Source: Amphiscolops sp. MND2022
Taxonomy: Eukaryota
Length of the DNA stretch: 64,000 bases
NCBI GenBank assembly: GCA_964187785.1
Contig: OZ076409.1
Coordinates: 57,166,001-57,230,000, forward strand
Direction of reading: 5' to 3'
Shown: one piece after another, positions 9,450 to 50,483 of the stretch
Layout of the letters: the number at the start of each line of letters is the position of its first letter
Position numbering within the stretch: position 1 is the stretch's first letter
Translations under genes and position numbers: made by a program
Notes under the pieces: generated by a model
What the model was told of the DNA's origin: nothing
Databases searched by the model: none
The model's input: the letters and a program-made list of their open reading frames with translations, nothing else

Positions 9450-12400
9450 TTAGAAACTGACCCTGTCGAAAGAGTGCAGCAGGAGTTGGAAATCGTCATA
9501 CATGGCGCCTAGCTCAGCAGCTGAAACCAAGCCCAACAACGCGATGTCCAACACTTCTCTGGCTCGGCATTTCTTCAACACCCTCAGAACAGGAACCAAT
9601 GACATATTCTCGCCGGACGCGCACGCCTCAACAGCCTCATTCATGCTAGACATAGCCATCAACTCCTCCACCGCGTTTTCAGGCGTGTCTCTGTTTTTCC
9701 AAATGATTTTGCACGCTTCTCGTCCGGTTGAGGCCAAGCTGCCCAAAACTGTCGTATGCTGATTAAACTCGAGCTGGCTTTGCACTGTTCTCCAGAACTC
9801 AAACGACTGAGTCCCTTCGCAGTGGAATGATATGCCACTTGAGCCTTCAGCGATTTCTTTTCCCAGCATTAGTCTGACAACTTCGTTTACTTTCTCGAAG
9901 TAGTATAACTCCTGATGAAGAGCTGAGCAACATGGTAGCATTTCATCTTCATCTCCAGCCTTTGCTGTTTTTCGGAACCTGTACAGACAAAGTCCGGCTG
10001 TAGATTCAGATCCACATACAACACACTCCGGGCTGACTTCCAGACATCTCATGGCTAGTTCATCATCAACTACGGCTTGACACTTTCTAGACGTAACGTA
10101 TGACTCACAGTGATGACATTTTGGAATTTCTCGTTTAAATTTCAGTTCCTTCTGTTTCGCTTTTTCCAGGAAATATCCAATTGCGCTCACTTCCGGGTCA
10201 TCTGGACCTTTTTCTCCGAATGCTCGGTTGTACAAGGCTTCCAGAGCCCTTCTCACAGCTGAGTTGAGCTCGCTCTCAGTCAAGCCAACATCACCATAAT
10301 CCTTTACTCCATTCTTTTTTGCCAACTCGCGAAGCTCGTTGAATCGTTTTCGGACTAAATCGGGAATCGTCTGTGCTAGAGCGAAGTCAGATTGATCTGG
10401 GTTATCTGATAGGCATTGACGCACTGACTCATCAGCTCGTTCACTCAACATTACATTATCATCGACCGCTGTCTGATCAATTGCTTCACTTTTCGGGAAA
10501 AGTTCCGCAAATTTGGATGAGTCATTAGCAACTAGAATAGCTTTTTCTACATCCGAGAGCGATTCCAAGATCTCTTTGCACAGCTGTTCTCGTCGGATGG
10601 GATCTACATTCTTGTTTTTCAACACACACTCATCGGCGAATACCACTTTTTCCAGGGGAGTAAGCTCTGATATTTCCGCCATGTTGTCTTCCTTGAACTG
10701 CGCAAAATTAGGAGATTCGCTGGCTCTTTTTATCAGATCTTCATCCACAAAATTGATCAAATTCACGAGATCAGGGTTGTTTTTGGTAATATCACTTATG
10801 ATATCCTTATTGCGTTTCGCAGGCTTAGTGTCTTTCTCCTGATTAGCCAATTGTCTCTTCATTTTTTCGATGTTTGAAATGTTTGTATCGGCAGACTTGA
10901 CTCCCATCTCAGACTCGGTGATAATTTTCAGAAGACCCGGGTTGTTATATACACTTTCCGGATCAATTGCTGACAAGGAATTCAAAAGACTCGAGTCCGG
11001 GATTTCGTTTGAAAGTTGACCATTGATGATTCTTTCACACAGGTCATCAATAACCGGCTCCGTCGGCTTCAGGGGTGGCGTGATTTTCATAGCAGCTTCG
11101 TTTCTCTTCTTCAATTTGTCTTCGAATGAGTCATCACCAGCCACGTCGCCTTTAGCTGCATCTTCGAAAAGAGCATTGCTCTTAGCGATGAGATCATCGA
11201 TATCTTCAATGTCCTCGCTCGAGTTGTCGAACACTGGGTTTTCAAGAACCGACTCGAGATATGATTCAAACGTAGGAGTTGCGATCATCCAAGGAAGCGA
11301 TTTGTCTGTTTCAAGAGCTTTCATGATTGCATCATAGATGCGGCCATCAATTCCTACCGGGTCGTAACCCTGTTCTGACTTTATCATCCAATCATTGACA
11401 TTCTCAGGTAGTTTTTCATCTTCTCGCTTTTGGGTCATGACTTTTCCGGTCAAAAGCAACATCCCGACTTTACCTTCTTTGGAAACAAAAAGTTTAGCTG
11501 CGTCACCTGCTTCCTGTTGGATCAACTCGTCGATAGCCTTGTCCAAGTTATTCAAAGAAGCATCACTTCCTCCGCTTTTCTTCGCTTCTTTCAGCGCGTT
11601 GATATATTTTTGGAATTTGGATTTAAACAAAGGACTGGCCAAGGTAGCGAGCGAACTTGTGGCTCCTTTTGCAGCGACGCCAAGACGGAGTTTTTGCAAA
11701 TCCTCTTCGCTGAGAGATGGGTACTTGTCTTGTGCGTCTTTGGTGGATACAGCATTTGCTAGTTTAAGTGCAAACTTCTGTTGGAATATTTCAGGTTCAG
11801 CGTCAACACCGAGAGCAGCCCGCAGCATATCGTTAGAAGCAATGACCCCTGAGTTAGGAGTATTTTCGTCATTTCGCAAACTTTGGCAAGAAGTTAAAGC
11901 TAAAGCTTTCTTGACATCGAAATCCTGGTTTTCGTAAATGTCTTTCGAAGCTTCATTGAAAAGACTCCTCTCATAACTGCGTGCGAAATCAAACAAGGTT
12001 TTGTAATGAGCTGGAGATATTTGGTCCTCCGTTGCAACTTGCCTCGCTTCCTTCCTGAACAAGGCAACTTCAGTTGCGGCGTTACCAGTTGTCAGAGCAA
12101 GATCGTTGTACGTGTCGTCAGTGAGAGTTTTAGAACCCACAAAGATGGGGTCTTCTTCAACCATATGCTCATCCAGTTTAGCACGCTGTTCCGAAGTTGG
12201 AAAAAACTTCAAGCCACGTCCGAACACATTAAGTCCCAAATCGTCCTGAATGATAATCTGAGGGGACGTGCGATAGAGATAACTGAGTTCTTTAACGCCA
12301 TACTTTTGAGCGTCTGATTCTTGTCTCAAGTTATTTTTGTATTCAACGAAACAGTCGTTGACAAGTTCCGAGAACTTGGCTCCTGTTATCACATCGCCCC

Positions 12401-15400
12401 ACGGCTTGTCGCGATTGAGATGCCACAGAAGTAATGACATCAACGGAATTCGAAAACGCTTTTCTTTCACCAAATTGAAAATCTCGGCTCCTGAAAAGCG
12501 TAAGCGTAACAGAATATCAAAATACATATTAACATGCTATAAGGATCGCTATGATCATGTTTTATTTGTTTGTCCATCAGAATACATTTTCAAATGTGTT
12601 CGAGGCGAATTGCAATCGCAACATCTAAGAACATATCAACTAAAATCTTAAAAAACTGAGCTTTGTAATGATACATTTGCATTCGAACTCTTTACTATGG
12701 ACAAAGAACTCAATTTCATTTATTCCATATACATGTGCTATAACGTATTAGTACAGAGCAAATTAACGAACCATTGCGCTTTTCCTCCGGCAGATTATCA
12801 AATTCGTCGAACAGCTCTTTGAAGCATGGACTAGCAGCTCTAAATATCGTGTTGATGTACTGTAGCAAGTCATTCAACTGTTCCGTTCCTTTGTCAGTCG
12901 CCGGCAGTCCCAGAAAGAACTTGCAATCTTGCACCGCAAATGAGATGTTGCTTTTGGATACAGCCGGTTTTTCCGCTTTCAGTTTCGGATCAGACACGTA
13001 CCTCTCCCAAGTATCGTCCAGGAAACAGTCAGAGGGCGAAAGTTTGATACCCTGAGTTCTGGTCCTGGACAGATCGCAGAGGGAGACGTGCAGGTACTCA
13101 AAGAAGATGTAAGGCAATGCAAAGGGGCCTTCCTCGTGAGTCGAGGATCCCAGACTCCCGTAAGTCTCCCAATTGGGGAACACGTCAGAAGTGGCAAAGT
13201 CAGAAGTCTTTGAGTTCTGACACGTGCAGTACATGTGAATGAGTCCAGAGTCAATGAAGCGGCTCACAATTTTCGGTTTGTGGCACTTCATGCAGAAACA
13301 TTGCGGATGACAGCACTCGAAGTAGGGTCGCTCGTCTCTTCGCAACATCTGCCGTTTATTCGCATCCTCGGCATTGTTCGCATTTTTGAAGTAGAAGTAA
13401 GGAGCCGCATTTGGCACCCCTCGTTTGAACGCTTTGGCTGCCCAGTAGTGATCAGCTTCTTTTTTGTCTGAGGCGCTCTTCCCTGTGAAAATACAACAAA
13501 ATCCACTCTGCGTCACAAAAACATGTGCCTTTTTCTAGCAATTCCATACAGTAGATTTACACAAGCAATGAACAATGAAAGAGGTGTATACCAAACAAGA
13601 AATGCTTAATGGGGTTGCTCGAAATATCGACAAAATATAGATTCATTTATATTCACACTGAAGGTCATAAGACATACATACCACTGGGACGAGCTGAAAA
13701 TATTAAACACTAGAAAAGTCAGCAGGAACATGGTTTCATGAGCACTCACCACAACAACAAAGCAGTAGGCTAAGCAGCGGGCGGGAGCGAATAGAACGAA
13801 CCCTTGTTGCAATCAGCAATTCACTGAAAGGAGAGTTATCCTCGAAACAGTATGTGACTCGATACATAACGCTGGGAGACTTAATTAGCTAAATGGTTGT
13901 AACGAAGGTCACATTCTCTAAGGATCAAATGCTATCACAGGATTGCTCATCATTGAGTGAAGCATTTTCTTCTTTTCATTTAATGTGCTTCAACAGTTAT
14001 GAACATTGAAAAGAAGAACTTCAGAGAAAGTAAAGCAAAAAACAAGTTCGAGTGAATTAGACGAAATCCCGAATCCGTTGACACATCAATAACTTTCGCA
14101 AAACAAAATCAAAATTCTCAACTGGTCATGAAGTTTTCTTATTATAACTAGGCCTCCCAAAAAAACCTGGGACGATTGAAATCGCCGCACCATCAAAAAT
14201 GCAATATTTGTAAACAAGTCACAAAGGTTCATTAATTTTGCTGTCAAAAATTACAGATGTATGTCTCTAAAAACCGAATAGCTGTAAAAACGATGACATT
14301 TTCCCCTTTAGGTGACTAGACATCGTTTGATATAAAAGTACACGCCATTTATGACGTAACATTTGATGCATGAAGTTGAATCGATTCAATGAACAGTTTT
14401 CATTTTGAATGATTGATAGACTGAAATACCAATTTCAAAGCTTTTGAATAGCTCGTTGACAGATATTTGGAAGCCAGATAGACCAACTCCTAGAATTTCT
14501 ACGTAATCCATTTTCAAGGACGCACATTATATCATGACACTGATACAAAAGACCTAATTTGTCAAAAAATAACATCATGCCGAATGTCAATCATTTAAGT
14601 CTGAAACAAAATACCACATGTCACAATTCCAGGATTCTAGCTTTCAGCTGATTGCACAGCTGCAATTCAACCTGCACGATACTTCGAAGAGAAAAGACTG
14701 ACGTGATGAACATATTCACTGCAGTTTCAATTACAAGTTACCCTCGCGTTCTCTTATTCTTAAAACGGTGCCTAAACACTCAAGTCCCAATTTTAGTCGG
14801 TGCCCTCGATGGTTTTCTGATACCAAAAAACAACGATGAAGAAAAATACCGAAATTTGAGTTCGTGAACGGCCCTAAGTATCCATGAAGTTATTTGGAAG
14901 CGCTCGACATTAATTTTGCAACTGTAGAAAAAAAACTTACACTGAACGACGTGTAATAGTTCCGAAAACTAAAAAATTGAAAACTATATGAAAGCTCTAT
15001 TTCATACTCCTGGTGGAATTTCCTCCATTCAATGACTTCTACAATGCTGTAGTCCTGACAACTCTAACACAAATATTTATCAAGTGGCAGAAGCAATCAA
15101 AGCATGATAGAAATGGTTTTCATTTTGAATAGAAATGAGTTGAGAAGTGAGAAAAACGAATTCTAAAAACTGATTTTTGTGGCACTTTATAATTTTTTCA
15201 AAAAATCTTCAAAATAAACTTCTTTCAAATCAATGTAACTTTTCTCTTGTAAGGACCATACCAATTAAAAAAGCCAATAGACGCCTGTTGTACTTCGACT
15301 GAAAGCCTGAAGGATTTGGGAAACAATTTTTTGACAGAAAATTTTCGGAATTTTGATATTGAAGAGCAAATAACAAAAATAACTGGGCGAAATCAAATAC

Positions 15401-20342: not shown

Positions 20343-20375
20343 AAGCCTAATTGTTGTGATAAACTTATTAAATAG
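20343..20375 (+). other. 33-nt spliced-leader-like sequence, copy 1
   Basis: aagcctaattgttgtgataaacttattaaatag, exact reverse complement of 25341-25373 with unrelated flanks; ends in AG and is not followed by GT. Confidence 0.6.
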
Positions 20376-20404
20376 TTTCAGAGCATTCGATGTTTTTAAA
20401 ATTA

Positions 20405-20700
20405 TTTTTCCTCTATCAGATATCATGGATCTTCGTCATCAAATGCCATGTGTATCATCATGTTGGGGGGAGAAGACACACACCTGTGGTCTGCAACGAA
20501 AGTAGGGAACCCCATACCAGCCACTGTCCCAGTAGACCACTAACAAAAAAAACAACAAACTACGCATACCAGCCACTATCCCAGTCGACCAGTAGAGACA
20601 TTTTAAAAGCTGCAATGGTATAGAGGTTTTAAAAGAATAAACTATGTAATGAATTTCTTCGAACGCATCTGTCGCTCACAGTTCCTAGAACACAGGCCGA
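20405..20700 (-). mobile_element. 3' fragment of RLE-type (CRE-like) LINE
   Basis: Similar to 57850-58075, the 3' end of the RLE LINE. Confidence 0.75.
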
Positions 20701-21683
20701 GCTGTCGGAGGAAATATATACAGCTAGATGACTAGATAAAAATTGACGAAATGACCAGATACAGATCTCAAAAATGGACTAGACAACCAACCAAATACTT
20801 GAAACTAGAGGGTAGTTCAGGTTGATTTCCCCCGCCAATTTTTGCAAAACCTCGACATATCAAAATTTTAGGTTTTCTCCGTGCATTTTTCCAATGAATT
20901 TTTGCAAAACCTCGAGACAGAGCACATCAAAAGTTTGGTTTTTCTTCTAAGTGAAAACTATAATCAAGTGAACAGTTCACTTTAACCGCATTCTTGATTT
21001 ATTCATAATTTAGGGACAAATCAGAAACAATCAGTTATGTAAATTAACATTGAGAGAGAAAAAACACTGTATTATTGTATAGGGATAGCTGGTGCCAGTA
21101 TACAATATGTGTAGATTGATTTATGCTGAAGCATAAATGATTTTTTCAAGTTTTACAGGGCGATAAATCAGGTGAAGGGGAAATCACGCCAAGTATGAGA
21201 TGTATGGATAGGCATACGACTACTTTCCAAAGTTAGATGATTTCTGGGACGACTTTCGAATGTGTGTAGACTTATAATAGTGTCTCTAAAGTACAACGGT
21301 AATGAGTTCCACTTCGAAGAAGAATGATGAAAGAAAGAACTGAAGAGAGATACATGACTTCCCATGTATATTATCTGATTAGTGCGATTGTTCCACCTAA
21401 AAATCGCCGTAGGTAATTTTAAAATGCTCTGGAAGGCTTTTTTAGTATTTTTGAGATATTGGAACAGAAAACTTGAGATTTCAACTCGATAAGTTGCTTT
21501 ATTCCAATTATTTTCTTTTTTTCTCTCAGATCACTCGACGATTTAAAGCTCGAACGGAAGTAGACAGATTTTAATGCCCAGTTCATCTGTTTCTCAAGGG
21601 AAACAAAGTAGTAAAGGAGGGGATATTTGAGTTTAAAAAATCGCAGAGTATTCGAAATCACAGATTATTAGCGCGTGGAAAAG

Positions 21684-22028
21684 AGGTGGGTGGAAGTAGG
21701 TCGAAGGAACGGGATCGAAAATCAGAGTTAGTCCTCAGGTCGACATACCAAATTTTTTGAATGGGATCGAAACAACTCGGATCGAATTTTTTATAACTTA
21801 GTCAGATGTGTTCACATACCCCTAGTGCCCTGAATGCAGGAGCGAAGCGGAGCGACGTGCCATATGGCCATGCCTCAATGTTGCTACTTGGCGAAGGGAG
21901 CGAAGCGATCGAGCTATTCAACAAATACGATAAAATTCGACCGCATTTCATTCGATCCCTGCAATTCGATCACAACGTTCGACCTCTGTCCTTTCGACCA
22001 GAAAAATTCGACCTATTTACAGCCACCC
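21684..22028 (+). mobile_element. MULE-like MITE, copy 1 (inserted in LINE)
   Basis: Imperfect TIRs; 9-bp TSD gtggaaaag at 21675-21683 and 22029-22037. Confidence 0.85.
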
Positions 22029-25000
22029 GTGGAAAAGCATGACTAAAACTGTGGTCGGAAATTTGTGTTGTAAAGATTCAATAGTTTTTTTTCCTACTGC
22101 CATGTTTTTCAAAACCTTTTTTACTTGGGTTTGGAAAGTCAAGTGTTGATCTAACGTTATTCCAAGATATTTGCATTCACATTTCTTTTTGACAACTGAG
22201 GAGCACACGACAACTGTTTCGGAGTCTAGCTGTCTCTTGTCATTTTTTCGAGAAAAAGTTATCAATTCTGTTTTACTGCCATGGGACTTAAAGTAACTTC
22301 AAGTTTCGAAATATTTGTTTGCAAACATTGCAAAGCAATGTCAGGGTCCTGGTGACTACAAAAAAGCAAGCAATCATCGGCGTACTGGATAATGCGAGCA
22401 TCCTCCGTTATCTGTTCAGTCAGGTCATTGACATATAGGTTGAAGAGCAGTGGTCCTAAAATAGTGCCCTGGGGAACGCCTTGTTTCAGTTCTATCCAAT
22501 CCGATTTGACATCGTTCAATGAAACCTGCTGCAGTCTATCACTGAGGAAACTTTTTATAAAGCTTTGGCCGAAGATGAGAAACCAAGAGACTTGAGTTTA
22601 GACAAAAGGATTTCATGTGAAAGTGAGTCAAAAGCTTTTGATAAATCCAGCAAGACTGCATGAACTATTTTTCCATCCTGAATTTCATGTTGAACCGATT
22701 CGGTGAAAAACAAAACAGCATCTTCTACTGATACTTTTTTCCTAAAACCAAAATGGAGTGGAGCGAGGAGATTTTTTCTTCAATGTAAGCTGTAATTTGC
22801 CTATGAATACATTTTTCGAGGATTTTGGAGAACGTTGTTGTAATCAAAAGGGGACGATAATTTTTGGGATCTAGAATGTCATCTTTTTTGAAGATGGGGG
22901 TTATAGTCGCTCTCTTTAACATCGTAGGAAAGACAATTTCATTAATGCACTCATTGGATATGAATGTTAAATGAGAAGTCAAAATTTGCTTTCCATTAAT
23001 TATAGCCCAAGCGGGCACCTTACAAGGACCGGTAGGTTTGTTCGGTTTCAACTCATTGATGATATCGTAACAATATTTCACTGTGATTGGACTAAAAGAG
23101 AACGAAGAATCACCGGGAAGGAAGGATGGAACTTCATCATTGATATTACCAAAATATTGACCAAGGTTCAAAATTATCAGGTTGAAATGACCGGCCATTT
23201 CCTTGTCATCAACTATCATTTTACCGAATGAATTTCTCACTGCTGCAAGATTGACCGACTTTTTATTTTGCCCTCGGGCAGAATTTATGAAATTCCATCT
23301 TTCCTTAGCGGTGCACAGAGAGGAAAAACAGCTCCAGGCAAATTTCTCTTGGTTCTTTTAGTACCTTAGAAAGTTGATTTCTAAGTTTTGAGTACGTAGA
23401 CCAGGTTTGAGCAGAGGTATTATTACAGTATTCGTAGTAAGCTGCTTGGCGTGCCTGGGTTAAGGTTTTGCACTCGCTGTCATACCAGGATTCTTTGAAA
23501 AGTTCAGGGGTCCTTTTTCAGAGAAATTTTTTTTGACGGGTGCACGCTTTTCCACAACACTAGCTAACATATAGACAAACAGATTGAACATATCAGCAGC
23601 ATTCGAACAATTATAGATTCTAAAGCATGGGATATTTGATAGTGACAGACAGAAAGCGGCTTTTTGGTAAGTACTCAAATCGAACACTTGCAAGATTGTG
23701 CACTTCTGTTTTTCAGCGAAAACGTTTGTGAAAACTACTGAGCCAGAATGATCTGTTTTAAAAGGACTATTGAACACAAAGCATTTACCGTCTAAGATGT
23801 TTTCACCTATTATATAGTCAATCTGTGTTTTTGTAGTTTTACAGACACGCGTAGGTAAATTTGGGCTAGCTACGGAAAACCCATATGGTAATATGACTGT
23901 TCTAGGTTTTCCCGTTAAAATGGGGTGAGGTAGTCTAAATTGTAACCGCCCATCATTGTGATATTTGCAGTTTCGCACGTGGAGTTGTCTATATTTGTTT
24001 CTAATTGTTCAAGAAAATCATTTTGAAATTGTTTCATAGGATTATAAGTTACGTTAATCAACATGGTTTTCTTGCAATTTTTTGAGAAATCATTCCTACA
24101 TTCTACCCAGATGGAGTCGAACTTAGTTTTATCAAAAAGGATGAGATCTTTTCGTTCCCTCGGAGCAAGTTTCAAAAATACCAAGAGCATTACACCACCA
24201 CCCTTTTTTTCGAATTTGCAGAACTTCGGTCACATCTTAAAAGCTCGTGGGTGTTTGAAGCTACATTCCAAAAAACCATGTCATCACTAGGAGTTAACAA
24301 ACTTTCAGAGATACCCACAATTGCGTTCAGTCCCATGTCGTTCACAAAAGATTTCAACTGAGTATGTTTTTTAGATACATCTTGAAAGTTCATGTGGACT
24401 ATGCGTAAATTTTGTTTATTTTTGTCGGACAACTTGGAAAAATTATCATAGCTAATTTCAGGGCCTGGATTTTGCTCAATATCTCCACAAAATTTCAAAA
24501 GAGCTCTAGCGAATGTTAGAAAATCGAATGAACAAAATGCATCAGATATCCCAAGGTTTCATATAAAATTTTTAACACTTTTACATGCACCGGCAAGTAG
24601 CTCTTTATCCCATTTTTGCAGTTTATATAGGTTTTCAAATACGAGTTTTTCATTATCTTGCATAAACACAATTATTTTTTCATTAACAGGATGCACTCTA
24701 GCAACATCATCCCGTTTCCTCAATTCACGAGTTACTTTAGCTCTGATTGGGGTAAGATCATCATTCACAAAAAAGTTGGTATTTTTGAGATTGCGCTTGT
24801 TTTTCATTAGCTGATGTTTCGTGTCACGTCTCACAAATTTGGCTATCAGAGGTTTGGGGCCCGACCCTCCGCCATGTAAACGGTGGCAGATACTTACGTC
24901 ATTGGCAGTAATTTGGACACCGGCCTTTTCAGCAACACTAACCACCTTCGCATAGACGTCCTCGCCTGGCTCTTCTTGCACTCCGAAAATGCGCACATTC

Positions 25001-25340
25001 TCCCTTCGCCCATACTGCTCTATGCTGTCAGCCTCGATGATTGGCGCAGCTCCTCCGTGGTACACCTACTAGCTTTGTTCAGCCCCTCAAATGCACAGAA
25101 TCCACACAGGAAAGGCCTCGCGAAGAAATTCTTGGGAATATGTGTGGGTACCCATACATTTGTCCAGATGACACATCCATTCCCATCCACACCAGGCCCA
25201 GTGCATTCAATCAGATGGTTGCTACCTTCTTCCTTTTTGCCCTGATTGATGGAGGATGTTGATGGGTTTCGCGCAGACGGCATTTCGTCGGGCCTTCTGT
25301 TTTATCGGTTAATCTGAAAAGACTTATTAAACAGCCGCAG

Positions 25341-25373
25341 CTATTTAATAAGTTTATCACAACAATTAGGCTT
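25341..25373 (-). other. 33-nt spliced-leader-like sequence at LINE 5' end, copy 2
   Basis: Identical to 20343-20375; lies ~57 nt upstream of the ORF1 ATG (25283), in sense orientation. Confidence 0.6.
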
Positions 25374-25900
25374 TTACCCCTAGTGCCCTGAATGCATTGA
25401 ACCTAAAGTGAAATACTAAAAGTAGGGCTGATTAACATTAACCACGGAATTCAGCACATAGGTTTTCAATTCCAGATGGGGCTCCAGACAATATTTGCTC
25501 AAGCTCATTTAAGGAGTATGAGTGGCAATTGCAAACGTATAAAAGAACAAAGATTACATGATGACAAACAGCTTTAAGTTTTTTTCACTTTATAAAAACA
25601 GTTACAATAGGGAATACTGCCAATTTCGACAGAGACGACATGTCTTTCACTAGACAAAAATACAGTTAGGGAGCTTCCCTCATTTGTATCTGCTTTCACA
25701 ACATATCGCATACCAGAATTTGAAGGAAAAACGTGACGTAACAATTCTTTAAATGCATTAGACAGTACTTCGTTATGGGTAACCAAAGGGTCGCGTATTT
25801 TTGTCAATTGACTGTTCTTGATTTTGCTGCTTGTCAACGCGCGAAGTTCGCCTTGGATTCACCTTTGTTGTGTAATTGTCAGAAGAAACCAAAACGTCAG

Positions 25901-28900
25901 TATAGAAACCTCTATTTGTAGAAACCTCTATTTTCATACAATGATCCTCTGAAATAAAATGACACTTTAAAAATACATCTATACATTTTACGATCTGTTA
26001 TAATAGAGTTTGCGACTATGTACATCTCCCTCCCCTCTCCAGTCCGAACTGGTCGTAGTAGATCGGGGAGGACTGTCACAATCGAATGTAGTCCCCAAGT
26101 CTCACAGGGGGACGCTTTTCTCTCTGGGACCGTCTGGGGGGGGGGGGGGAGCCGGTGGGTTATCCGGAAGGGGGGTTCTTTGCTAGAGGTGACTCGTTGG
26201 AAGACCCAGTTTCATTAAGTTTATCACAACATCTGGACTCCTTGTCGGGTGATCCACCAGAAAGGATGTGGGGCATGATATCTTTGTCCAGCGAGGGCTT
26301 GTTCTCATCTCCAGGGGACTCATTTGGTGGGCAATTGAACTTGAGTGGAGCTTTGATTGTAACTGCCGGTGTCTTTGGGGGGAATATGGGACAGTTTGCC
26401 TCTGGGGGTGTTGTGTAAACAGTGCACCGGTCAGAACTTGACGCTTTGTTTCCGGTTGCGGTGTTTGCGGCTTTGCTTTAGGTGGATCTTGTCCCTGTTC
26501 TGGGTTGGGGGTGGGCGGAAGTAGGTCGAAGGAACGGGATCGAAAATCAGAGTTAGTCCTCAGGTCGACATACCAAATTTTTGAATGGGATCGAAACAAC
26601 TCGGATCGAAATTTTTATAACGTAGTCAGATATGTTCACATACCCCTAGTGCCCTGAATGCAGGAGCGAAGCGAAGCGGAGCGACGTGCCATATGCCCAT
26701 GCCTCAATGTTGCTACTTGGCGAAGGGAGCGAAGCGACCGAGCCATACAACAAATACGATAAAGTTCGACCGCATTCCATTCGATCCCTGCAATTCGATC
26801 AAAAGGTTCGACCTCTGTCCTTTCGACCAGAAAAAATTCGACCTATTTACAGCCACCCCTGGGTTGGTTCATTGATTCACGGGAGACAGATTCTCGGCGT
26901 TGTAGAGAGTTTTCAAAGGTTTGATGGTGCGGGTAGTACCGAGTATGTGGTCCACAACAATCTTGTTGAATTTCCTTAGAAGTTTCCGATTCCGGAGAGT
27001 AACTCTGCCCGATCCATCAACTTTGACGGCGTACTGGTCGAACTGTTTCTCCTCAATCACTAAGCCGGTTCGATCCCATCGCAGTGGATGGTTACCTGTC
27101 TGGTTCTGGATGAAGACCCGGTCGCAAACTTTAAGGGGTTGTAACCGTACTTTGTGTTCGGTGAGGCGTTCAGCATTTCTGACATTTCTAGCACGCATTG
27201 CTTCTTCCCTGGACCGTGATGTTTCTATCCAGGTGTTGTGAGGTCTGTATGAACCAGGCAGAATGGGGATGAAGTCCTTTATGGGTCGTCCAAAGATCAT
27301 TTGTGCTGGGGATAAACCGGTATCGCGGTCAGGGGTGTTGCGGTATTGAAGCATGCCTCTTTGAAATTTGTCGAGGTTGATCTCGCCGTTCGGGCCAGTG
27401 TTGTCCATGAGCATGCTCTTGCAGGTCTTGACCCCGAGCTCGGCGCGACCATTGGAGTGGGCAAGTGCAACAGATGAGAGGCGGTGATGGACACCCCAGT
27501 TTGACAACAGTTGTTGTGTCTCCTCGGCCGTGAATTCAGATCCGCCATCTGACGATAGTTCGTCTGCAATGCCGTATGTAACGAAAATTACGCGTAGGCA
27601 TTTTACAAGACCTGAAGAACCATCTCGTGATTGCTGCACAATCGGCCAACCAGAATAGCGTTCCACAACCACCATGTAACTGCAGCCTTTGTATTTGAAG
27701 TAATCCACACAGATTCACTGGAAGGGGTAAACTTGTTCCTGAGCCGCGAGCGGAGGGCCATGTTGTTGACTGGGCGCACGCTCGTTGCATGACCGGCATC
27801 GGGCTCTCTAGATTGCAATAGCCGGCGTAATGCCCGGCCAAAAGACGCTAGATTCAGCCCTGGACGTCATGCAGGAGACACCTTGATGAGCAGAATGCAG
27901 TGTGTCTAGGATTAGTGCTCTTAGTGGTGATGGGATAACAGTCCTGCTGTTGTATAAAATCACTCCATCCACAGTGCTGAGTCAATCCTTGACTTGGAAG
28001 AATTCTCGTATACCCGGGGCAAAATCCAATCGTGAGGTAATGCCCTGGAAACCGTCTTCGATCTTTTTTTGGAGATTTTGTAGAGTTTCATCGCGTAGGG
28101 TGTGTTATCGGACCTCCGCCCATGTAACAGCGCGAATGTCGCCGAGATTGGTGGCCGCAGCAACTGCAAGCGTTTCTTCCAGATCAGCTGATGTGTCGGG
28201 TTCCCACGTCATGGTAGCCTCAGAAAGACGGAGACGCGGTTCAATACAAGCGATGGAGTCCGACTCCTCAAAATCACTATCCAAGGGAGGTTTTTTTGCA
28301 TCACCAGTGGGTTTCCCCGAGTTTGCATTCGGCGCCTTTCGTTTCTGTCCGGGTATATGGATTATAGAGAAACGGTATGGCAGCGTCTTCTCCTTGAGTG
28401 ACAGTAGTCTTTCATTCTTGATATCGCCGGGTTGTCGGTTGTTGAGGACCCCGAGTAGCAGCGTGTGGTCGGTAGCTACTACTAAGTTGTCGCAACCGAG
28501 TACGAAGTGACGGGCGGACTCCAGTCCAAAAAACACAGCTAATGCTTCCCCTTCAATAGGAGCATATCTTGATTCTGCTGGGTGTGTGAACCTGCTACCA
28601 GCGAACACTATTTTCTATCCCGTTGAGCAACAGACAGGAGTGATGACCTCACAGGTGCAGTACTTCTGCAAGAGCCAAAAACCGATGCCTTTCTTGGACC
28701 AATCTGTGGCGAGACATGTGACGTGTTTGGAGTCGAAGATCCGGACACTCTCGGTGATTTTGTCCAGTATAGCAGTCTTTGACTGCTCAAAAACTTGTTG
28801 CAGCTGATCATCCCAATAGAACATTGACGACGGCTTGAGGTGCTCGCGAAAGGCGCCATGTCGTTGCGGAGGGAGTCGCAGTACGATACTTGGTTGATGA

Positions 28901-33106: not shown

Positions 33107-36100
33107 CATACATCGAGTCAGGGACATTTCGTCACCAGCCATTTGGGCGACAATATGGCGTCGGTCACATGGGCGACAAAAGTGTCGACCAAATGGGTTG
33201 ATCAAGTTGATCAATTAACTGATATATTTGAAGAGGTTAGGATATTTGTTTTACGGCTCGGTCGCTTCGCTCACTTCGCCAAGTAGCAACATTGAGGCAT
33301 GCCCATATGGCACGTCGCTCCCTTAAGCTTCGCTCCTGCATTTAGGGCACTAGGGGTATGTGAACATATTTGGCCATTCAGTCTACGGGTAATTTGGGCG
33401 ACATTTTTGTCGCCGAAATGGGCTTAAATTTTTGTCGCCCAAATGGCTGGTGACGAAACGTCCCTGCCCCCATACATCGAAAATGTCCGCATATCAGTTG
33501 GTGAAAAGCTTGCTTGGTGTAGTTAGTAGCATATTATCAGCCATTTCAATCTGAAACAAACGGGAATTTTTCGACAGAATTTCGACATTAATTCGACATT
33601 GGTTTTTCGACTAGATTCGAAGTTGTCCTTCGACTCTAATGATTCGACGTTAGGAATTCGACGTGTCAAAACTCGACGCAATTGACGCAAGCCGTGCGAA
33701 CGACAGAGCATTTTAGAGAGACGCGTGATGAAATCTTCACTAAAAGATCTAACCCTTTCTGATAAAACTAAATTCGACTCCATCTGGGTAGAATGTATTA
33801 ATGATTTTTCAAAAAAGTGCGAGATAAACCATGTTGATTAACGTAACTTATAATCCTTTGAAACAATTTCAAAATGATTTTCCGTAACAATTAGAAACAA
33901 ATATAGACAACTCCACATGGGAAACTGCAAACGTCACAATGATGGATAAGTACAATTTAGACTACCTCACCCCAATTTAACGGGAAAACCTAGAAACAGT
34001 CATATTACCATATGGGTTCTCCGTAGCTAGCCCAAATTTACCTACGCGTGTCTGTAAAACTACAAAAAACCCACATTGACTATATTAGAACTGAAAACAT
34101 CTTGGACGGTAAATGATTTGTGTTTAGTAGTCCTTTCAAAACAGATCATTTTGGCTCAGTATTTTCACAAACGTTTTCGCTGAAAAACAGAAATGCACAA
34201 TTTTGCAAAAGTTCGATTTGAGTACTTACAAAAAAGCCGCTTTCTGTCTGTCACTATCAAATATCCCATGCTTTAGAATCTATAATTGTTCGAATGCTGC
34301 TGATATGTTCAATCTGTTTGTCTATATGTTAGCTAGTGTTGTGGAAAAGCGTGCACCCGTCAAAAAAAATTCCTCTGAAAAAGGACCCCTGAACTTTTCA
34401 AAGAATCCTGGTATGACAGCGAGTGCAAAACCTTAACCCAGGCACGCCAATTAGCTTACTACGAATACTGTAATGATACCTCTGCTCAAACCTGGTCTAC
34501 GTACTCAAAACATAGAAATCAACTTTCTAAGATACTAAAAGAAAAGCAAGAGAAATTTCCCTGGAGTTGTTTTTCCTCTCTGTGCAGCGCTATGGAGAGA
34601 TTGAATTTCATAAAGAACGCCCAAGGGCAAAATAAAAAGTCGGTCAATCTTGCAGCAGTGAGAGATTCAATCGGTAAAATGAAAGTTGATGAACAGTTAA
34701 TGGCCGATCATTACAACCTGATATGATCGAACCTTTGTCAATATTTTGGTAATATCAATGATGAAGTTTCATCCTTCCTTCCCGGTGAATTCTTCGTTCT
34801 CTTTCGTCCAATGACAGTGAATAATTGTTACGATATCATCATTGAGTTGAAACCGAACAAACCTACCGCTCCTTGTAAGGTGCCGCTTGGGCTATAATGG
34901 ATGGAAAGCAAATTTTGAATTCTCACTTAACATTCATAATGAAAGAGTGCATTAATGAAAGTGTCTTTTCTACGATGTTAAAGAGAGCGACTAAAACTCC
35001 CATTCGCAAAAAAGATGACATTCTAGATCCCAAAAACTATCGTCCCATTTCGGTTACAACAACGTTCTCCAAAATCCTTGAAAAGTGTATTCATAGGCAA
35101 GTTACAGTTTACATTGAAGAAAAAATCTCCTCGCTCCAAGCCTATTTGGTTTTAGGAAAAAAGTTTCAGTAGAAAATGCTGTTTTGTTTTTGACCCAATC
35201 GGTTCAACAGTAAATTCAGGATTGCAAATAGTTCTTGCTGGATTTATCAAAAGCTTTTGACTCTTTTTCACATGAAATCCCTTTGTCTAAACTCAAGTCT
35301 CTTAGTTTCTCATCTTCGGCCATCAGCTTTATAAAACGTTTCCTCAGTGATAGACTGCAGCAGGTATCATTGATTTGTGTCAAATCGGATTGGATAGAAT
35401 TGAAGCAAGGCGTTCCCCAGGGCACAATATTAGGACCACTGCTCTTCAACCTATATGTAAATGACCTGACTGGACAGATAACGGAGGATGCTCGCATTTT
35501 CCAGTACGCCGATGATTGTTTGCTTTTTTGTAGTCACTAGGACGCTGACCTTGTTTTGCAAGGTTCGCAAACAAATATTTCGAAACTTGAAAGTTACTTT
35601 GAGTCCCTTTGAACTTGAATGGCAGTAAAACAGAATTCATAACTTTTTCGCGTGAAAATGAGAAGAGGCAACTAGACTCCGAAATAGTTGTCGTTGTCAA
35701 AAAGAAATGTGAATGTAAATATCTTGGAATAACGTTACACTTAACTTTCCAACCCCAGGTAAAAAAGGTTCTAAAAAACATGGCAGTTGGAGTATAAACT
35801 ATTGAAACTATACAACCAGGGTTGTCGAGAAATAGTCGAGACTCTTGGGTTGTCGAGAAATAGTCGAGACTCACATACATCGAGTCAGGGACATTTCGTC
35901 ACCAACCATTTGGGCGACAATATGGCGTCGGTCACATGGGCGACAAAAGTGTCGACCAAATGGGTTGATCAAGTTGATCAATTAACTGATATTATTGAAG
36001 AGGTTAGGATATTTGTTTTACGGCTCGGTCGCTTCGCTCACTTCGCCAAGTAGCAACATTGAGGCATGCCCATATGGCACGTCGCTCCCTTAAGCTTCGC

Positions 36101-38587
36101 TCCTGCATTTAGGGCACTAGGGGTATGTGAACATATTTGGCCATTTAGTCTACGGGTAATTTGGGCGACATTTTTGTCGCCGAAATGGCTGGTGACGAAA
36201 CGTCCCTGCCCCCATACATCGAAAATGTCCGCATATCAGTTGGTGAAAGGCTTGCTTGGTGTAGTTAGTAGCATATTATCAGCCATTTCAATCTGAAACA
36301 AACGGGAATTTTTCGACAGAATTTCGACATTAATTCGACATTGGTTGTTCGACTAGATTCGAAGTTGTCCTTCGACTCTAATGATTCGACGTTAGGAATT
36401 CGACGTGTCAAAACTCGATGCAATTGACGCAAGCCGTGCGAACGACAGAGCATTTTAGAGAGACGCGTGATGAAATCTTCACTAAAAGATCTAACCCTTT
36501 CTGATAAAACTAAATTCGACTCCATCTGGGTAGAATGTATTAATGATTTTTCAAAAAAGTGCGAGATAAACCATGTTGATTAACGTAACTTATAATCCTT
36601 TGAAACAATTTCAAAATGATTTTCCGTAACAATTAGAAACAAATATAGACAACTCCACATGGGAAACTGCAAACGTCACAATGATGGATAAGTACAATTT
36701 AGACTACCTCACCCCAATTTAACGGGAAAACCTAGAAACAGTCATATTACCATATGGGTTCTCCGTAGCTAGCCCAAATTTACCTACGCGTGTCTGTAAA
36801 ACTACAAAAAACCCACATTGACTATATTAGAACTGAAAACATCTTGGACGGTAAATGATTTGTGTTTAGTAGTCCTTTCAAAACAGATCATTTTGGCTCA
36901 TGTTTTCACAAACGTTTTCGCTGAAATACAGAAATGCACAATTTTGCAAAAGTTCGTTTTGAGTACTTACAAAAAAGCCGCTTTCTGTCTGTCACTATCA
37001 AATATCCCATGCTTTAGAATCTATAATTGTTCGAATGCTGCTGATATGTTCAATCTGTTTGTCTATATGTTAGCTAGTGTTGTGGAAAAGCGTGCACCCG
37101 TCAAAAAAAAATTCTCTGAAAAAGGACCCCTGAACTTTTCAAAGAATCCTGGTATGACAGCGAGTGCAAAACCTTAACCCAGGCACGCCAATTAGCTTAC
37201 TACGAATACTGTAATGATACCTCTGCTCAAACCTGGTCTACGTACTCAAAACTTAGGAATCAACTTTCTAAGATACTAAAAGAAAAGCAAGAGAAATTTC
37301 CCTGGAGTTGTTTTTCCTCTCTGTGCAGCGCTATGGAGAGATGGAATTTCATAAAGAACGCCCAAGGGCAAAATAAAAAGTCGGTCAATCTTGCAGCAGT
37401 GAGTGATTCAATCGGTAAAATGATAGTTGATGAATAGTAAATGGCCGATCATTACAACCTGATATGATCGAACCTTTGTCATTATTTTGGTAATATCAAT
37501 GATGAAGTTTCATCCTTCCTTCCCGGTGAATTCTTCGTTCTCTTTCGTCCAATGACAGTGAATAATTATTACGATATCATCATTGAGTTGAAACCGAACA
37601 AACCTACCGCTCCTTGTAAGGTGCCGCTTGGGCTATAATGGATGGAAAGCAAATTTTGAATTCTCACTTAACATTCATATTGAAAGAGTGCATTAATGAA
37701 AGTGTCTTTTCTACGATGTTAAAGAGAGCGACTAAAACTCCCATTCGCAAAAAAGATGACATTCTAGATCCCAAAAACTATCGTCCCATTTCGGTTACAA
37801 CAACGTTCTCCAAAATCCTTGAAAAGTGTATTCATAGGCAAGTTACAGCTTACATTGAAGAAAAAATCTCCTCGCTCCAAGCCTATTTGGTTTTAGGAAA
37901 AAAGTTTCAGTAGAAAATGCTGTTTTGTTTTTGACCCAATCGGTTCAACAGTAAATTCAGGATGGCAAATAGTTCTTGCTGGATTTATCAAAAGCTTTTG
38001 ACTCTTTTTCACATGAAATCCCTTTGTCTAAACTCAAATCTCTAAGTTTCTCATCTTCGGCCATCAGCTTTATAAAACGTTTCCTCAGTGATAGACTGCA
38101 GCAGGTATCATTGATTTGTGTCAAATCGGATTGGATAGAATTGAAGCAAGGCGTTCCCCAGGGCACAATATTAGGACCACTGCTCTTCAACCTATATGTC
38201 AATGACCTGACTGGACAGATAACGGAGGATTCTCGCATTTTCCAGTACGCCGATGATTGTTTGCTTTTTTGTAGTCACTAGGACGCTGACATTGTTTTGC
38301 AAGGTTCGCAAACAAATATTTCGAAACTTGAAAGTTACTTTGAGTCCCTTTGAACTTGAATGGCAGTAAAACAGAATTCATAACTTTTTCGCGTGAAAAA
38401 GAGAAGAGGCAACTAGACTCCGAAATAGTTGTCGTTGTCAAAAAGAAATGTGAATGTAAATATCTTGGAATAACGTTACACTTAACTTTCCAACCCCAGT
38501 TAAAAAATGTTCTAAAAAACATGGCAGTTGGAGTATAAACTATTGAAACTATACAACCAGGGTTGTCGAGAAATAGTCGAGACTCTC
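33107..38587. repeat. Tandem duplication of ~2.74 kb (33107-35847 and 35874-38587)
   Basis: Paired ORFs 33523/36265, 34897/37638 and 35235/37976 are near identical, with scattered substitutions and one ~25-bp indel. Confidence 0.95.
33115..33470. mobile_element. MITE with ~26-bp TIRs (second copy in duplication at ~35882-36212)
   Basis: TIR cagggacatttcgtcaccagccattt / aaatggctggtgacgaaacgtccctg; catacatc(g) duplicated on both sides. Confidence 0.8.
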
Positions 38588-39553
38588 GGTCGAGACTCGA
38601 GAAATGCCAATTCGAGACGAGAATTGAGAAATAGTTCGTCGAGGATCGAGAATCGAGAAATGATTCGAGAAGTGAATTCGCGAAACCCAATTCCATTTAT
38701 CTGAAAAATTTGAAATATCTCAAATGCCATGAAAGATTCAAGTCTGTATGTCTATAGAATGATTATTATTGATTATTTTAGGCCAACAAGCTGTGATGTT
38801 GAGAGGATGTTTTCGACAGGACGACTATTCAAGTCATGTCTTCAGGGCCGGCTGTCTCGTGACAATCATCACCGAAATGTGTTTTTAAATAAAAACGCCA
38901 CGCTAAGATCATAATCTTGCACATTTAATGTCGTATAAAAACTCCTCGCTAAGATCATTATCTTGCACATTTAATAACGTATAACAACGCCGTTTTGTTG
39001 AATTTGAAGGATTTTCGTAACGAGTTGAGTTGACTAGAATGCTTTTTGAAGAAGGTTTTATATTGAATGTTAAATTAGAAGATATGTTAAGGTTGAAATG
39101 GATAGATAGAGAAAATTGTATTTAGCGCAAAAGATGGTTGAAAGAAAGTTAGAAGGTTCAACGCAGAAAGGCTCAAAAGCAAAATGTCTAACTCCTCACA
39201 CTTCCTCAAATACCCCTTATCAGACAATATTTTGGTGAGTCCCACCATTATGGGAGTTATTTTATTACATTATACACAGACCTGTCGAAACCCGTTGGCC
39301 TGTGGTTACGTTATCAACGTTTACTGTCGAACCCCGACAGTACAATGTGACTAAGTTGTCGTGCCCGTCAACTTCAATTTACGATATGTCACATTAATAT
39401 TATTTTGTTGCCAGCCATATTTTAGGCTATAAAATCTCTCCATTTTTTTCAATTAGTTCTTTCTTGATTTTGATTTTCAAAAATATCACATAGGTTTCCT
39501 ATGTTTCTCCCCTCCCAATGAGAAGTTAGCACATTCAAGTAGCACCATGAAAA

Positions 39554-46100: not shown

Positions 46101-46599
46101 GAATTGCTTGGTTTGACTTGACTACCAAACATGTTGACCTCTTTTTACTAGCATTTGACTTTAGTTCCAAGCTTCGGTTTATTTTTCCACAGAATAGTTT
46201 CTGTTGTTTCGCGTACAGTATACAATCGTTTTGTACCATGAAATCTAATCCCATTAGGCACGGGAAAAAATCCAATGCTGAGATTAAAAATGTGGCCCGA
46301 GCTTCGGCTGTAAACTTTTCGAGATGAACGATCAGTTCAACTTTACCCTTTATCAGTAGAGGCGAGTTATTGGCCGTGAGTAACTTCCCGTTATAATCTT
46401 CCGTTTTACCACTGAACGTTATTGTTTGCAAATACGACCAGCTGACCAGTGAGATGCTACTACCACTGACAACTAAAGCAGTTGTAAGTTTTCCTTGCAG
46501 CAAAAACGTTGTGTTTAAAGCGTGTATATTAGTTTGACTCAGTTCAGTCATTCCCATAATGGCCAAAGTCGATCGAGGGAAATGTGTAGCCATTTCCAC
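43145..46599 (-). pseudogene. pol remnants: protease, RT C-terminus, RNase H, integrase; RT core apparently deleted
   Basis: ALVVSGS protease-like motif; FLGHVISENGVEVD; DAS RNase H; PFWQVSLDVMGP...HSDKG integrase; GPY/F-like YRGSY; no YxDD seen. Confidence 0.85.
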
Positions 46600-49318
46600 A
46601 TCGGCCTGTTTTAGTTTAAAAAAGGACAGTCTTTTTTGAAATGCTGTGAGCTTCCGCAGTTATAGCAATTCCTACACTCTCTCGCCCAGTAACCACGTTG
46701 ACCGCATCTATGACAACTATCCCCTGCGATTCCCGCTCGATCCGATTCTGAAACCCTCTCTCGAGATTGGGATCTGCTTTGTCCGCTTTCCGACCTACCG
46801 GGCGTTTGTTGTCTGCCTTTATATCCTCCGCGTCCTCTGCTTCGTCCCCTCGACTTCCATCTCCCCCGTTTCCGTTTCTATCACTATCTCTTGAACTACT
46901 TCTTCGGTATTGTTTCCTTTCCGGAAAACTGTTGCGATTGTCATTTCGCGAATCTCGCGAAAGAGAGTTTTTCTATCAACCGATTCACAGATTTAATCAA
47001 TCTCTCATTGTTGTCGGGTTGAAGCACAGCGACTCTGGGTACTTTTTCTTCTTCCTCAATTCTAGTGACGGCTTCAAGGTGCAGAGCCATCTCTAGTATG
47101 CGCTCAATGTTCATTTCAGCGTCTCCAATTGTCTTTCTGAGATCTAGTCTCACTTGACTATTACGGATTCCCTCAAGGAATCCCCTAACTACCAAGTGAT
47201 CTCTTATCTTTTTTGATTCACCCGGGTAGGCCTTCATCGCTAAGCCCTGTAAGTCTCCTAGAAAATCGGTTAATATCTCCCCCGGGCTTTGCGTCCTCCT
47301 TGCAAGCCGTCCCCGGATTACCACTGGTTTATCAGTGTAATTAGTTCTGAAAGTTTTCTTCAACTCGTCATAACTCGCTTTTTGAGCGTCAGTTAAAGTT
47401 CGATAGAAATCAATTGCGGATTTTTGGAGACGTAATCAAAATCATGCGGCCGATCATCACTTTCTATGACATTTCCTTCACGAGTTTCTGTTCTAACCCA
47501 GTTCTGGAGGTTAGCTAACAGTTCGAAATGAGTTATATAACTTTCGATGTCATTGGAGCCAGTGAACGGTTCCGGTAATAACATCTTGGAAGTACCCGTA
47601 GCCATCGTAGCTATCAACCCGACCTTGCTCTTCTTTCCTTTATGTGTACCGAATCTACTTAAGGAAAAGTTACGCTAGACAACTTTTGGGATTTTATTTT
47701 TAAGCATTAGCTCTTTGATAGTGACCCACTAGCAAAAGTTTGTTGTTTTTCGAAATCAGTGAAACCCACTGATTTGTTTTGAAGACTATTTTTTTCTTAG
47801 TTTCTTTTGTTTTCAATTATTGATATTTTCTACGCTTTGGTTGTTTCAGTTTCTTTTTCTTGTAGGATTGTCCGTTTAAAATGGTTTCTACGTTGTTTCG
47901 ATGTTATTTCTGCTATGTGTTTAAAGCGTGTATATTAGTTTGACTCAGTTCAGTCATTCCCATAATGGCCAAAGTCGATCGAGGGAAATGTGTAGCCATT
48001 TCCACATCGGCCTGTTTTAGTTTAAAAAAGGACAGTCTTTTTTGAAATGCTGTGAGCTTCCGCAGTTATAGCAATTCCTACACTCTCTCGCCCAGTAACC
48101 ACGTTGACCGCATCTATGACAACTATCCCCTGCGATTCCCGCTCGATCCGATTCTGAAACCCTCTCTCGAGATTGGGATCTGCTTTGTCCGCTTTCCGAC
48201 CTACCGGGCGTTTGTTGTCTGCCTTTATATCCTCCGCGTCCTCTGCTTCGTCCCCCTCGACTTCCATCTCCCCCGTTTCCGTTTCTATCACTATCTCTTG
48301 AACTACTTCTTCGGTATTGTTTCCTTTCCGGAAAACTGTTGCGGTTGTCATTTCGCGAATCTCGCGAAAGAGAGTTTTTCTATCAACCGATTCACAGATT
48401 TAATCAATCTCTCATTGTTGTCGGGTTGAAGCACAGCGACTCTGGGTACTTTTTCTTCTTCCTCAATTCTAGTGACGGCTTCAAGGTGCAGAGCCATCTC
48501 TAGTATGCGCTCAATGTTCATTTCAGCGTCTCCAATTGTCTTTCTGAGATCTAGTCTCACTTGACTATTACGGATTCCCTCAAGGAATCCCCTAACTACC
48601 AAGTGATCTCTTATCTTTTTTGATTCACCCGGGTAGGCCTTCATCGCTAAGCCCTGTAAGTCTCCTAGAAAATCGGTTAATATCTCCCCCGGGCTTTGCG
48701 TCCTCCTCGCAAGCCGTCCCCGGATTACCACTGGTTTATCAGTGTAATTAGTTCTGAAAGTTTTCTTCAACTCGTCATAACTCGCTTTTTGAGCGTCAGT
48801 TAAAGTTCGATAGAAATCAATTGCGGATTTTTGGAGACGTAATCAAAATCATGCGGCCGATCATCACTTTCTATGACATTTCCTTCACGAGTTTCTGTTC
48901 TAACCCAGTTCTGGAGGTTAGCTAACAGTTCGAAATGAGTTATATAACTTTCGATGTCATTGGAGCCAGTGAACGGTTCCGGTAATAACATCTTGGAAGT
49001 ACCCGTAGCCATCGTAGCTATCAACCCGACCTTGCTCTTCTTTCCTTTATGTGTACCGAATCTACTTAAGGAAAAGTTACGCTAGACAACTTTTAGGATT
49101 TTATTTTTAAGCATTAGCTCTTTGATAGTGACCCACTAGCAAAAGTTTGTTGTTTTTCGAAATCAGTGAAACCCACTGATTTGTTTTGAAGACTATTTTT
49201 TTCTTAGTTTCTTTTGTTTTCAATTATTGATATTTTCTACGCTTTGGTTGTTTCAGTTTCTTTTTCTTGTAGGATTGTCCGTTTAAAATGGTTTCTACGT
49301 TGTTTCGATGTTATTTCT
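46510..49318 (-). repeat. Tandem duplication (~1.4 kb) of gag + 5'UTR within the LTR element
   Basis: 46510-47911 and 47916-49318 near identical; gag ORFs 46941/48348 and 47393/48800; separated by gcta. Confidence 0.95.
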
Positions 49319-50483
49319 TACCCGTCTTCAAAATAACTTCGAAATAAAATTGTTCTACCGAAAAATTATTCTCGTACAGTGGAAGTTGGTTTTACGTTTA
49401 TGTGATTTTCGAGGATTCCGATTTAAGTATCGATTCGATTTAATTTTGAAAAATTAAGTTTTACTCGTGTTTATAGTACATCTCGTTTTTTTTCAATATG
49501 TCCAACGAACTTTTTTTCTCCGTCGTTGATTGCGGGTCTGATACTATTTGGAGTATCTAAGTCGATAAGTCGTTTCCTTTTTTCCTTGTCACCACTGTAG
49601 CGTTCCGAGATGAAAGTTTTGTTGAATTTGAAGGATTTTCGGAACGAGTTGAGTTGACTGGAATGATTTTTGAAGAAGGTTTCATTTTGAATGGTAAATT
49701 AGAAGATATTGAGGTTGAAATTGATAGATAGAGAAAATTGTATCCAGCGCGAAAGATGGTTGAAAGAAAGTTGGAAGATTCGACGCAGAAAGGCTCAAAA
49801 GCAAAATGTCTAACTTCTCACACTTCCCTAAATACCGCTTATCAGACAATATTTTGGTGAGTCCCACCATTATTGGAGTTATTTTAATACATTATACACA
49901 GACTTGTCGAAACCCGTTGGCCTGCGGTTACGTTATCAACGTTTACTGTCGAACCCCGACAGTACAATGTGACTAAGTTGTCGAGCCCGTCAACTTCAAT
50001 TTACGATGTGTCACATAAATATTATTTTATTGCCAACCATATTTTAGTCTATAAAGTCTCTCCATTTTTTTCATTTAATTCTTGCTTCACTTTGATTTTC
50101 AAAAATATCATAAAGGTTTCCTATAGTCGCTTTGGTGAAGTTTATCACCACCTCTATGAGAAGCATTTCATTTCCTTCACCTAAAGACATTATTAAATGC
50201 CATTTTGCTTTGTTTTCTACAAGAATATGTAAGTCGAGAAGTTAAATTCTGTCGAGAATCGAGACCGAGAATTAAGTTTCAGATTTTTCGAGACCGAGAA
50301 TCGAGAAATGGGAAGTCACTCGAGAATCGAGAATGATTTTGTCGAGATCTCGACAACCCTGTATACAACACAAAGTTCCGACCACAGTCTTAGTCATGCT
50401 TTTCCACGCGCTAATAATCAGTCATTTCGAATACTCTGCAGTTTTTTTTACTCAAAAATCCCCTCCTTTACTACTTTCCCTTG

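Follow-up and report, generated by a model that had tools for sequence, protein, structure and literature searches.

How does a LINE come to begin with what looks like a spliced leader (SL), and how could it pass that leader on from copy to copy? We investigated this question in Amphiscolops sp. MND2022 within a window of 64,000 nucleotides, the window being the whole stretch analyzed (contig OZ076409.1, positions 57,166,001 to 57,230,000). A 33-mer at this locus is the acoel SL exon at the 5′ end of a LINE, and on balance, we lean toward the reading that it was placed there by trans-splicing and near-complete reverse transcription in a self-renewing cycle. The idea of the preliminary description thus holds in large part, with a junction that is unusual.

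A scan of the window located two copies of the 33-mer, each with 0 mismatches and on opposite strands, an orientation that the preliminary description had left out. These and the features next to copy 2 are as follows:

25341..25373, minus strand: SL exon copy 1, LINE 5′ end (33-mer scan; published acoel SL; SL RNA gene L036)
20343..20375, plus strand: SL exon copy 2 (33-mer scan), probably the 5′ remnant of a further SL-headed element
20376..20381, plus strand: TTTCAG directly 3′ of copy 2, then A (sequence)
20402..20699, minus strand: 3′ fragment of another repeat, interrupting the copy-2 stub (71% to 57844-58075)

No other match was found in the window at ≤3 mismatches, and 0/100 shuffles gave any. 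As the preliminary description had reported, the recurrence is exact and the flanks are unrelated: the homology between the copies spans exactly 33 nt, with the same starting base in both. The AG end without a following GT, noted there as well, is also confirmed, the next base being C at copy 1 and T at copy 2. With GT donor and intron absent after the exon, neither copy reads as an SL RNA gene, and no piece of the SL intron was found in the window (best match 13 nt). Over the copy 2 leader and the 11 nt after it, 43/44 nt agree with the head of LINE L046. The repeat fragment about 25 nt from copy 2 belongs to a restriction-like-endonuclease LINE by motif reading only and has no Pfam match. 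Elsewhere in the window, a 16-nt exact piece of the leader core (blastn E 0.001) is present at 26216-26231 (−), close to where an LTR-type element with an integrase has its 3′ end, and is either a relic or a chance match.

Bases 3–33 of the 33-mer are exactly the first 31 of the 32 nt published as the SL of Symsagittifera roscoffensis, in both window copies, which bears out the likeness to acoel leaders noted in the preliminary description (PMC9911081). The S. roscoffensis SL is carried by 30.2% of genes (PMC9911081; preprint 10.1101/2022.08.27.505549), and SL-headed LINEs go unmentioned in the text on that leader (PMC9911081). A literature text search using part of the 33-mer returned only this genome paper and its preprint. 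Scanning with an exact 24-nt leader pattern gave 64 metagenome loci and 1 in genome contigs (L065), 65 in total, and 0 matches in viral contigs. These split into 49 mRNA-type contigs, 3 SL RNA genes, and 13 LINE 5′ ends; the exact 24-mer partly builds leader conservation and a clean AG end into the counts and leaves leaderless or diverged-leader LINEs uncounted. The loci come from mixed samples, and the mRNAs, SL genes, and LINEs are probably from different species.

The leader is present at mRNA 5′ ends, where the preliminary description had proposed to look for it: the match lies at the contig end in 48/49 mRNA-type contigs, of which 46/49 have a cellular Pfam family. LINE proteins were found in 0/49, and none of these contigs is RNA of the window LINE or of any of the 13 relatives. 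The proposed search for SL RNA genes (exon, GT, and Sm site) was likewise productive. The exon is followed by GTAAGT in L028 and L036 and by GCAAGT in L018, and the genes have an arm pairing with the exon, a U-rich Sm-like site (by eye), and a strong hairpin. None of the Rfam SL families matches this acoel-type SL RNA, and Rfam gave 0 matches over the window. Because the SL genes continue with GT or GC after AG and 38/49 mRNAs continue with A, the exon itself ends in AG, and the last A of the published leader probably belongs to the acceptor exon, as its commonest first base. The scan yielded SL RNA genes of acoel type in which the exon boundary is clear and the exon falls one base short of the leader as published. 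A longer, 38-nt form of the leader is found in three mRNA contigs and in L036. Window positions 25341-25372 (32 nt) are identical to the L036 exon, and this match stops 6 nt short of the longer leader's start, so copy 1 may be less than the complete reverse transcript it had been taken for. Of the 13 heads with flank, 0 reach the start of the 38-nt form, and their breaks fall within the leader's first bases. The host leader may be a shorter variant than the 38-nt form. In L036 (530-856), a 5S rRNA gene (117.8 bits in Rfam) comes after the SL RNA gene, in the same orientation.

Copy 1 heads a LINE that is full-length in layout, from about 25373 to about 21000 (−) with its 3′ end inferred, and that is decayed by frameshifts and stops. 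The leader lies 57 nt upstream of the ORF1 ATG and in sense to ORF1, in agreement with the preliminary description. The features of the element are as follows:

25365..25369, minus strand: CTAAT in the leader, putatively branch-point-like, A about 26 nt before the leader end (sequence)
25322..25353, minus strand: predicted hairpin of the leader 3′ half and an anti-leader arm (25322-25335), 14 bp with a c(UGCG)g loop
25314..25319, minus strand: acceptor-like TTTCAG, then A (sequence)
24559..25283, minus strand: ORF1, frameshifted, 45-64% identity to ORF1 of L037 and L051
21168..24558, minus strand: ORF2, broken, with a 2A-like DxExNPGP, an endonuclease-like start, and RT (RVT_1; tblastn)
21685..22032, strand not assigned: short DNA-transposon-like repeat inside ORF2, 348 bp, 8-bp duplication, 94% to 26510-26862
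20995..21167, minus strand: likely 3′ untranslated end, end point placed by AATAAA

RVT_1 matches fall at 22265-22779 (Pfam), and L051 ORF2 matches window positions 22424-23900 by tblastn. The endonuclease-like start of ORF2 is a motif reading only, with weak pairwise scores, and Pfam and pairwise tests on the window's endonuclease pieces gave no confirmation. The relatives carry an N-terminal Exo_endo_phos domain (Pfam), and a restriction-like endonuclease was not found in these SL-headed elements. The window ORF1 has no Pfam match. A profile of 12 ORF1s gave only a weak match, to LINE-1 ORF1p (E 0.033); the top match of a PDB profile search was an unrelated protein, and single-sequence AlphaFold of L051 ORF1 reached a pLDDT of 37. 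ORF1 is close to that of L051, yet the RT is just 35% identical to L051's, which suggests a possible ORF1/ORF2 swap between these elements. The window LINE is putatively of the CR1 group (CR1, L2, Crack and kin), which it resembles in having ORF1 followed by an endonuclease-RT ORF2, in the microsatellite tails of its relatives, and in a 2A-like peptide in the window copy; our RT tree covered the sequences of this analysis. The DxExNPGP peptide, which we assume to be 2A-like, is located at the ORF2 start at 24460-24490 (−). The inserted 348-bp repeat is presumably a hAT/MITE, and LINE sequence at 50364-50492 lacks this insertion. Positions 21052-21256 match a sister fragment at 55736-55940, and no target duplication was noticed around the window LINE. 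The 5′ end is missing from every sister copy in the window, namely those at 33739-35816 and 36481-38557 and three short 3′ fragments, and also from a related LINE at about 50700-53860.

Is the leader at the head of other LINEs? Window aside, 13/13 genomic non-gene leader copies are LINE-like (12/12 in metagenome contigs and 1/1 in genome contigs). Pfam matches to RT or endonuclease were found for 8/13; L016, L023, L026, and L032 are called by homology to these Pfam-supported heads, and L053, the weakest LINE call, rests on a PHD-type ORF1. Judging from their sequences, the SL-head trait spans deep LINE lineages, as the RTs of six SL-headed LINEs are only 20-52% identical. Adding window copy 1 gives 14 heads, which are not independent: L026 and L056 are one family, L016 and L037 share 15 nt, and the window and L065 share 56 nt. 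A fair reading is that about ten lineages stand behind the 14. The leader stops exactly at the exon boundary in 14/14 heads, with donor or intron bases in 0/14, by a pattern that is blind to shorter joints. In L037 and L053, short pieces of the leader recur on the upstream side, a patchwork that fits the joining of a cDNA end. Just upstream of copy 1, a 22-mer at 25375..25396 (+) is an inner piece of a short repeat family, with 6 matches in the window and 0 in 100 shuffles. The source repeat also sits in ORF2 of the window LINE in the same orientation, and the 22-mer is possibly junction filler.

We then compared the joints downstream of the leader, scoring a motif as acceptor-like when YYTCA directly follows the leader or YYTCAG occurs within 45 nt, YYTCAG being a candidate for the acoel acceptor consensus. 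By this rule, the motif is present in 12/14 LINE heads vs 1/49 mRNAs (Fisher p 4e-10), with a background of 51/1420 windows; the two heads without it are L015 and L053. It follows the leader directly in eight metagenome heads, of which five end in AG and three read TTTCAT or TTTCAA. Window copy 2 has the motif in this position too and is excluded from the 12/14 count. YYTCAG is followed by A in 11/11 cases, with an ATG 2-53 nt further on, like host mRNA starts. An A at +1 after the leader is found in 4/14 heads vs 38/49 mRNAs, and the host-mRNA-like joint (A after the leader, acceptor gone) is not what the LINE heads show. In sequence, then, the junction differs from an ordinary trans-splice product. 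Leader-TTTCAG joints do occur in RNA-type contigs: L061, a non-coding-looking contig of this type in which no LINE homology was found, has the leader and then TTTCAG. The CTAAT of the leader is exact in 10 of the 13 heads with flank, has its third base changed in 2, and is lost in 1; the branch-point consensus is yUnAy. We rejected TTTCA as a transcription initiator, since the leader upstream of it would then not be inherited. L016 and L037 belong to different ORF1 families and have the same 15 nt from leader to ATG, with TTTCAT replacing TTTCAG, as a second shared head.

The window head also contains a predicted hairpin in which an arm downstream of the leader pairs with the leader's 3′ half (z −4.1; 0/200 shuffles as stable). 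L065 has a similar hairpin with a c(UUCG)g loop, and L056/L026 have a longer one (z −4.9 and −7.5 for L065 and L056/L026). In all three, the arm lies between the leader and YYTCAG, its departures from a perfect leader complement are G-U pairs, and the leader AG is 27-38 nt from TTTCAG. The predicted binding of the anti-leader arm to the leader is −14 to −21 kcal/mol vs −10 to −12 kcal/mol for the SL RNA's own arm. Pair counting found 0 pairs with two-sided covariation, the leader side being fixed by the exact-match search. We considered snap-back cDNA as the source of the arm and rejected it, as the arm lies downstream of the leader and folds better as the sense strand in the window, L065, and L056. 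The window and L065 heads share 56 nt at 93%, no other DNA is detectably common to the two, and L065 ORF1 does not match window ORF1. The preliminary description had named membership of a longer repeat consensus as the alternative to a leader, and this holds in part, because 56 nt of the window head recur at the head of an unrelated LINE, L065. As modeled, the hairpin would bury the leader's terminal AG, which is the main difficulty for its use as an acceptor.

Since the acceptor is cut away in trans-splicing, daughter copies should lack it. Most copies keep TTTCAG, so the RNA that was copied would either have escaped splicing or have received its leader at the AG that ends the leader itself, and in our analysis the latter is favored. 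The self-renewing cycle that we prefer would run as follows. A LINE copy would be read through from an upstream host promoter. The integrated leader would supply the branch-like CTAAT and its terminal AG, and TTTCAG would recruit 3′-splice-site factors. A new leader would be joined at the upstream AG, giving a capped RNA with the same head as its parent and TTTCAG retained. Reverse transcription would end a few bases before the cap, and leader and acceptor would be inserted again. RNA spliced at TTTCAG itself would give daughters without TTTCAG, likely poor parents; in TTTCAT and TTTCAA heads, the motif could not be lost by splicing there. In the most speculative step, the arm would let go of the old leader by strand exchange with the incoming one, whose 3′ end it would then keep at the upstream AG. 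A partial precedent comes from adjacent 3′ splice sites in C. elegans, where a bare AG just upstream of a UUUCAG is favored in the germline (PMC10946429). These sites share with the LINE heads a bare upstream AG near a downstream UUUCAG; they differ in being cis-spliced, nematode, and spaced by up to 18 nt, and they serve as an analogy only (PMC10946429).

More tentatively, and with our confidence falling well short of even, several deep lineages of acoel LINEs could be promoterless parasites of the SL machinery. In these, the leader would give branch point and AG, the unconsumed TTTCAG would define the site, and in some a guide arm with a UNCG loop, shared by unrelated LINEs, would capture and align the incoming leader. 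If true, this would solve the puzzle that trans-splicing strips the acceptor from daughters and would explain how a LINE that has no internal promoter regains a 5′ end that is full and capped. It would also constitute a natural RNA guide for spliceosomal trans-splicing.

The main rival to renewal, which we consider rather unlikely, is a single past capture, through trans-splicing or a template switch, of the leader alone or of leader and arm together. The head would since have been fixed, transcribed from an internal or upstream promoter and unrenewed, like the snRNA heads of SINEU. The 56-nt head common to two LINEs with unrelated ORF1 fits such inheritance, as does the alteration of L010 and L056 at the same leader position. 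The hairpin fits it too, as it hides the upstream AG and looks like the first stem of the SL RNA itself, which it may mimic in a fixed head. The Ascaris leader has an internal promoter role; a literature search on this role found no paper. Heads of this origin have a parallel in SINEU of crocodilians, where a small nuclear RNA piece forms the 5′ head of a retroelement and is proposed to stem from template switch (PMC4494074). However, SINEU elements are non-autonomous and their heads are cut at no splice boundary, whereas here autonomous LINEs carry the exact exon (PMC4494074). Nothing would oblige a template switch onto SL RNA to stop where the exon does, and a donor or intron base is found in 0/14 heads; the exact exon end thus fits an inherited head less well. 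A fixed head also leaves the retained acceptor-like YYTCAG and A unexplained, and the TTTT box proposed as a dinoflagellate leader promoter (PMC12014239) is absent from 13/13 heads with flank.

A somewhat smaller chance falls to a scenario in which master LINEs have their own promoter and outron, and the SL-headed copies are dead ends, i.e., non-propagating by-products of ordinary trans-splicing that used an AG shortly before the main acceptor. Slamovits and Keeling reportedly described comparable SL-relic retrogenes of dinoflagellates in 2008. Such relics on retrocopies are common in dinoflagellates, and as in the acoel heads, the leader was copied to DNA from trans-spliced RNA and the relic can be the next acceptor (PMC12014239). 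The leader-TTTCAG joint of the non-LINE RNA L061 is also in favor of by-products. However, a joint that is minor in mRNAs (1/49) would have to prevail in LINEs (12/14), and the presence in three lineages of an anti-leader arm, with G-U pairs and UNCG loops, implies that leader-bearing RNA has been under selection. The dinoflagellate relics differ as well, in that a new leader joins near the relic start, relics stack, and the cargo is host genes (PMC12014239), whereas the acoel leader has the LINE itself as cargo, with an acceptor-like motif retained on its downstream side. Stacked or tandem leaders were found after the SL in 0/14 heads; in L032, the end of the leader recurs as a 7-nt echo.

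It is very improbable that the leader is target DNA left by site-specific insertion into SL RNA genes. LINEs that target SL genes do occur in trypanosomes and nematodes, and in CRE, SLACS, CZAR, and NeSL the LINE adjoins an SL exon (PMC3636483, PMC4640811); LINEs also abut SL RNA genes in L018 and L028. However, those known elements insert into SL genes and have a restriction-like endonuclease (PMC3636483, PMC4640811), whereas the acoel elements have two ORFs, the leader as head, and unrelated flanks. Beyond the leader, the 5′ flanks of LINE heads show no match among themselves or to the SL gene L036; SL-gene upstream DNA with the remainder of the SL gene was not found around them, and the window's match to the SL intron is ≤13 nt. 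L046 and L051 are bordered on their 3′ side by unrelated DNA, with no target-site duplication (longest shared stretch 4-5 nt), and L015 ends in its tail. We give almost no credence to an SL RNA pseudogene or a chance LINE neighbor: leader and arm do look superficially like the first stem of SL RNA, but the donor and the strong second SL-gene hairpin are absent, and the 13/13 other genomic non-gene copies directly precede a LINE ORF1. Our literature searches, which covered few subscription papers, found nothing on SL-headed LINEs or a retained acceptor. Leader relics on retrogenes, SL-gene-targeting LINEs, and snRNA-headed SINEs are known already; new here are mainly the retained acceptor and the anti-leader arm.

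Several further observations were made in the window and the scanned loci. An ORF at 58753-59454 (−), esterase-like by motif only, is homologous to the first ORF of the SL-headed L053 (E 2e-11), and upstream of it is TTTTTCAG and an ATG, with no leader. An open frame of 1028 codons with no Pfam match spans 9450-12536 (−). Near-identical tandem duplications are present at 33107-38589 (2.7 kb, 98%) and 46510-49318 (1.4 kb, 99.7%), and are either recent duplications or an assembly artifact. L018 and L028 each contain a LINE of L1/Tx1 type, with RT and zinc finger and with the 5′ end missing; the two are 71% alike in DNA, and from their motifs we take them to be Tx1-type. We did not accept AAAAGCC as a proven leader variant, since the A-run in L018/L028 may be a LINE tail. 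Immediately where each of these LINEs ends, a whole SL RNA gene begins (5′ end first), 95-98% conserved. They are likely a family that targets SL genes by means of an APE-type endonuclease and is separate from the SL-headed LINEs.
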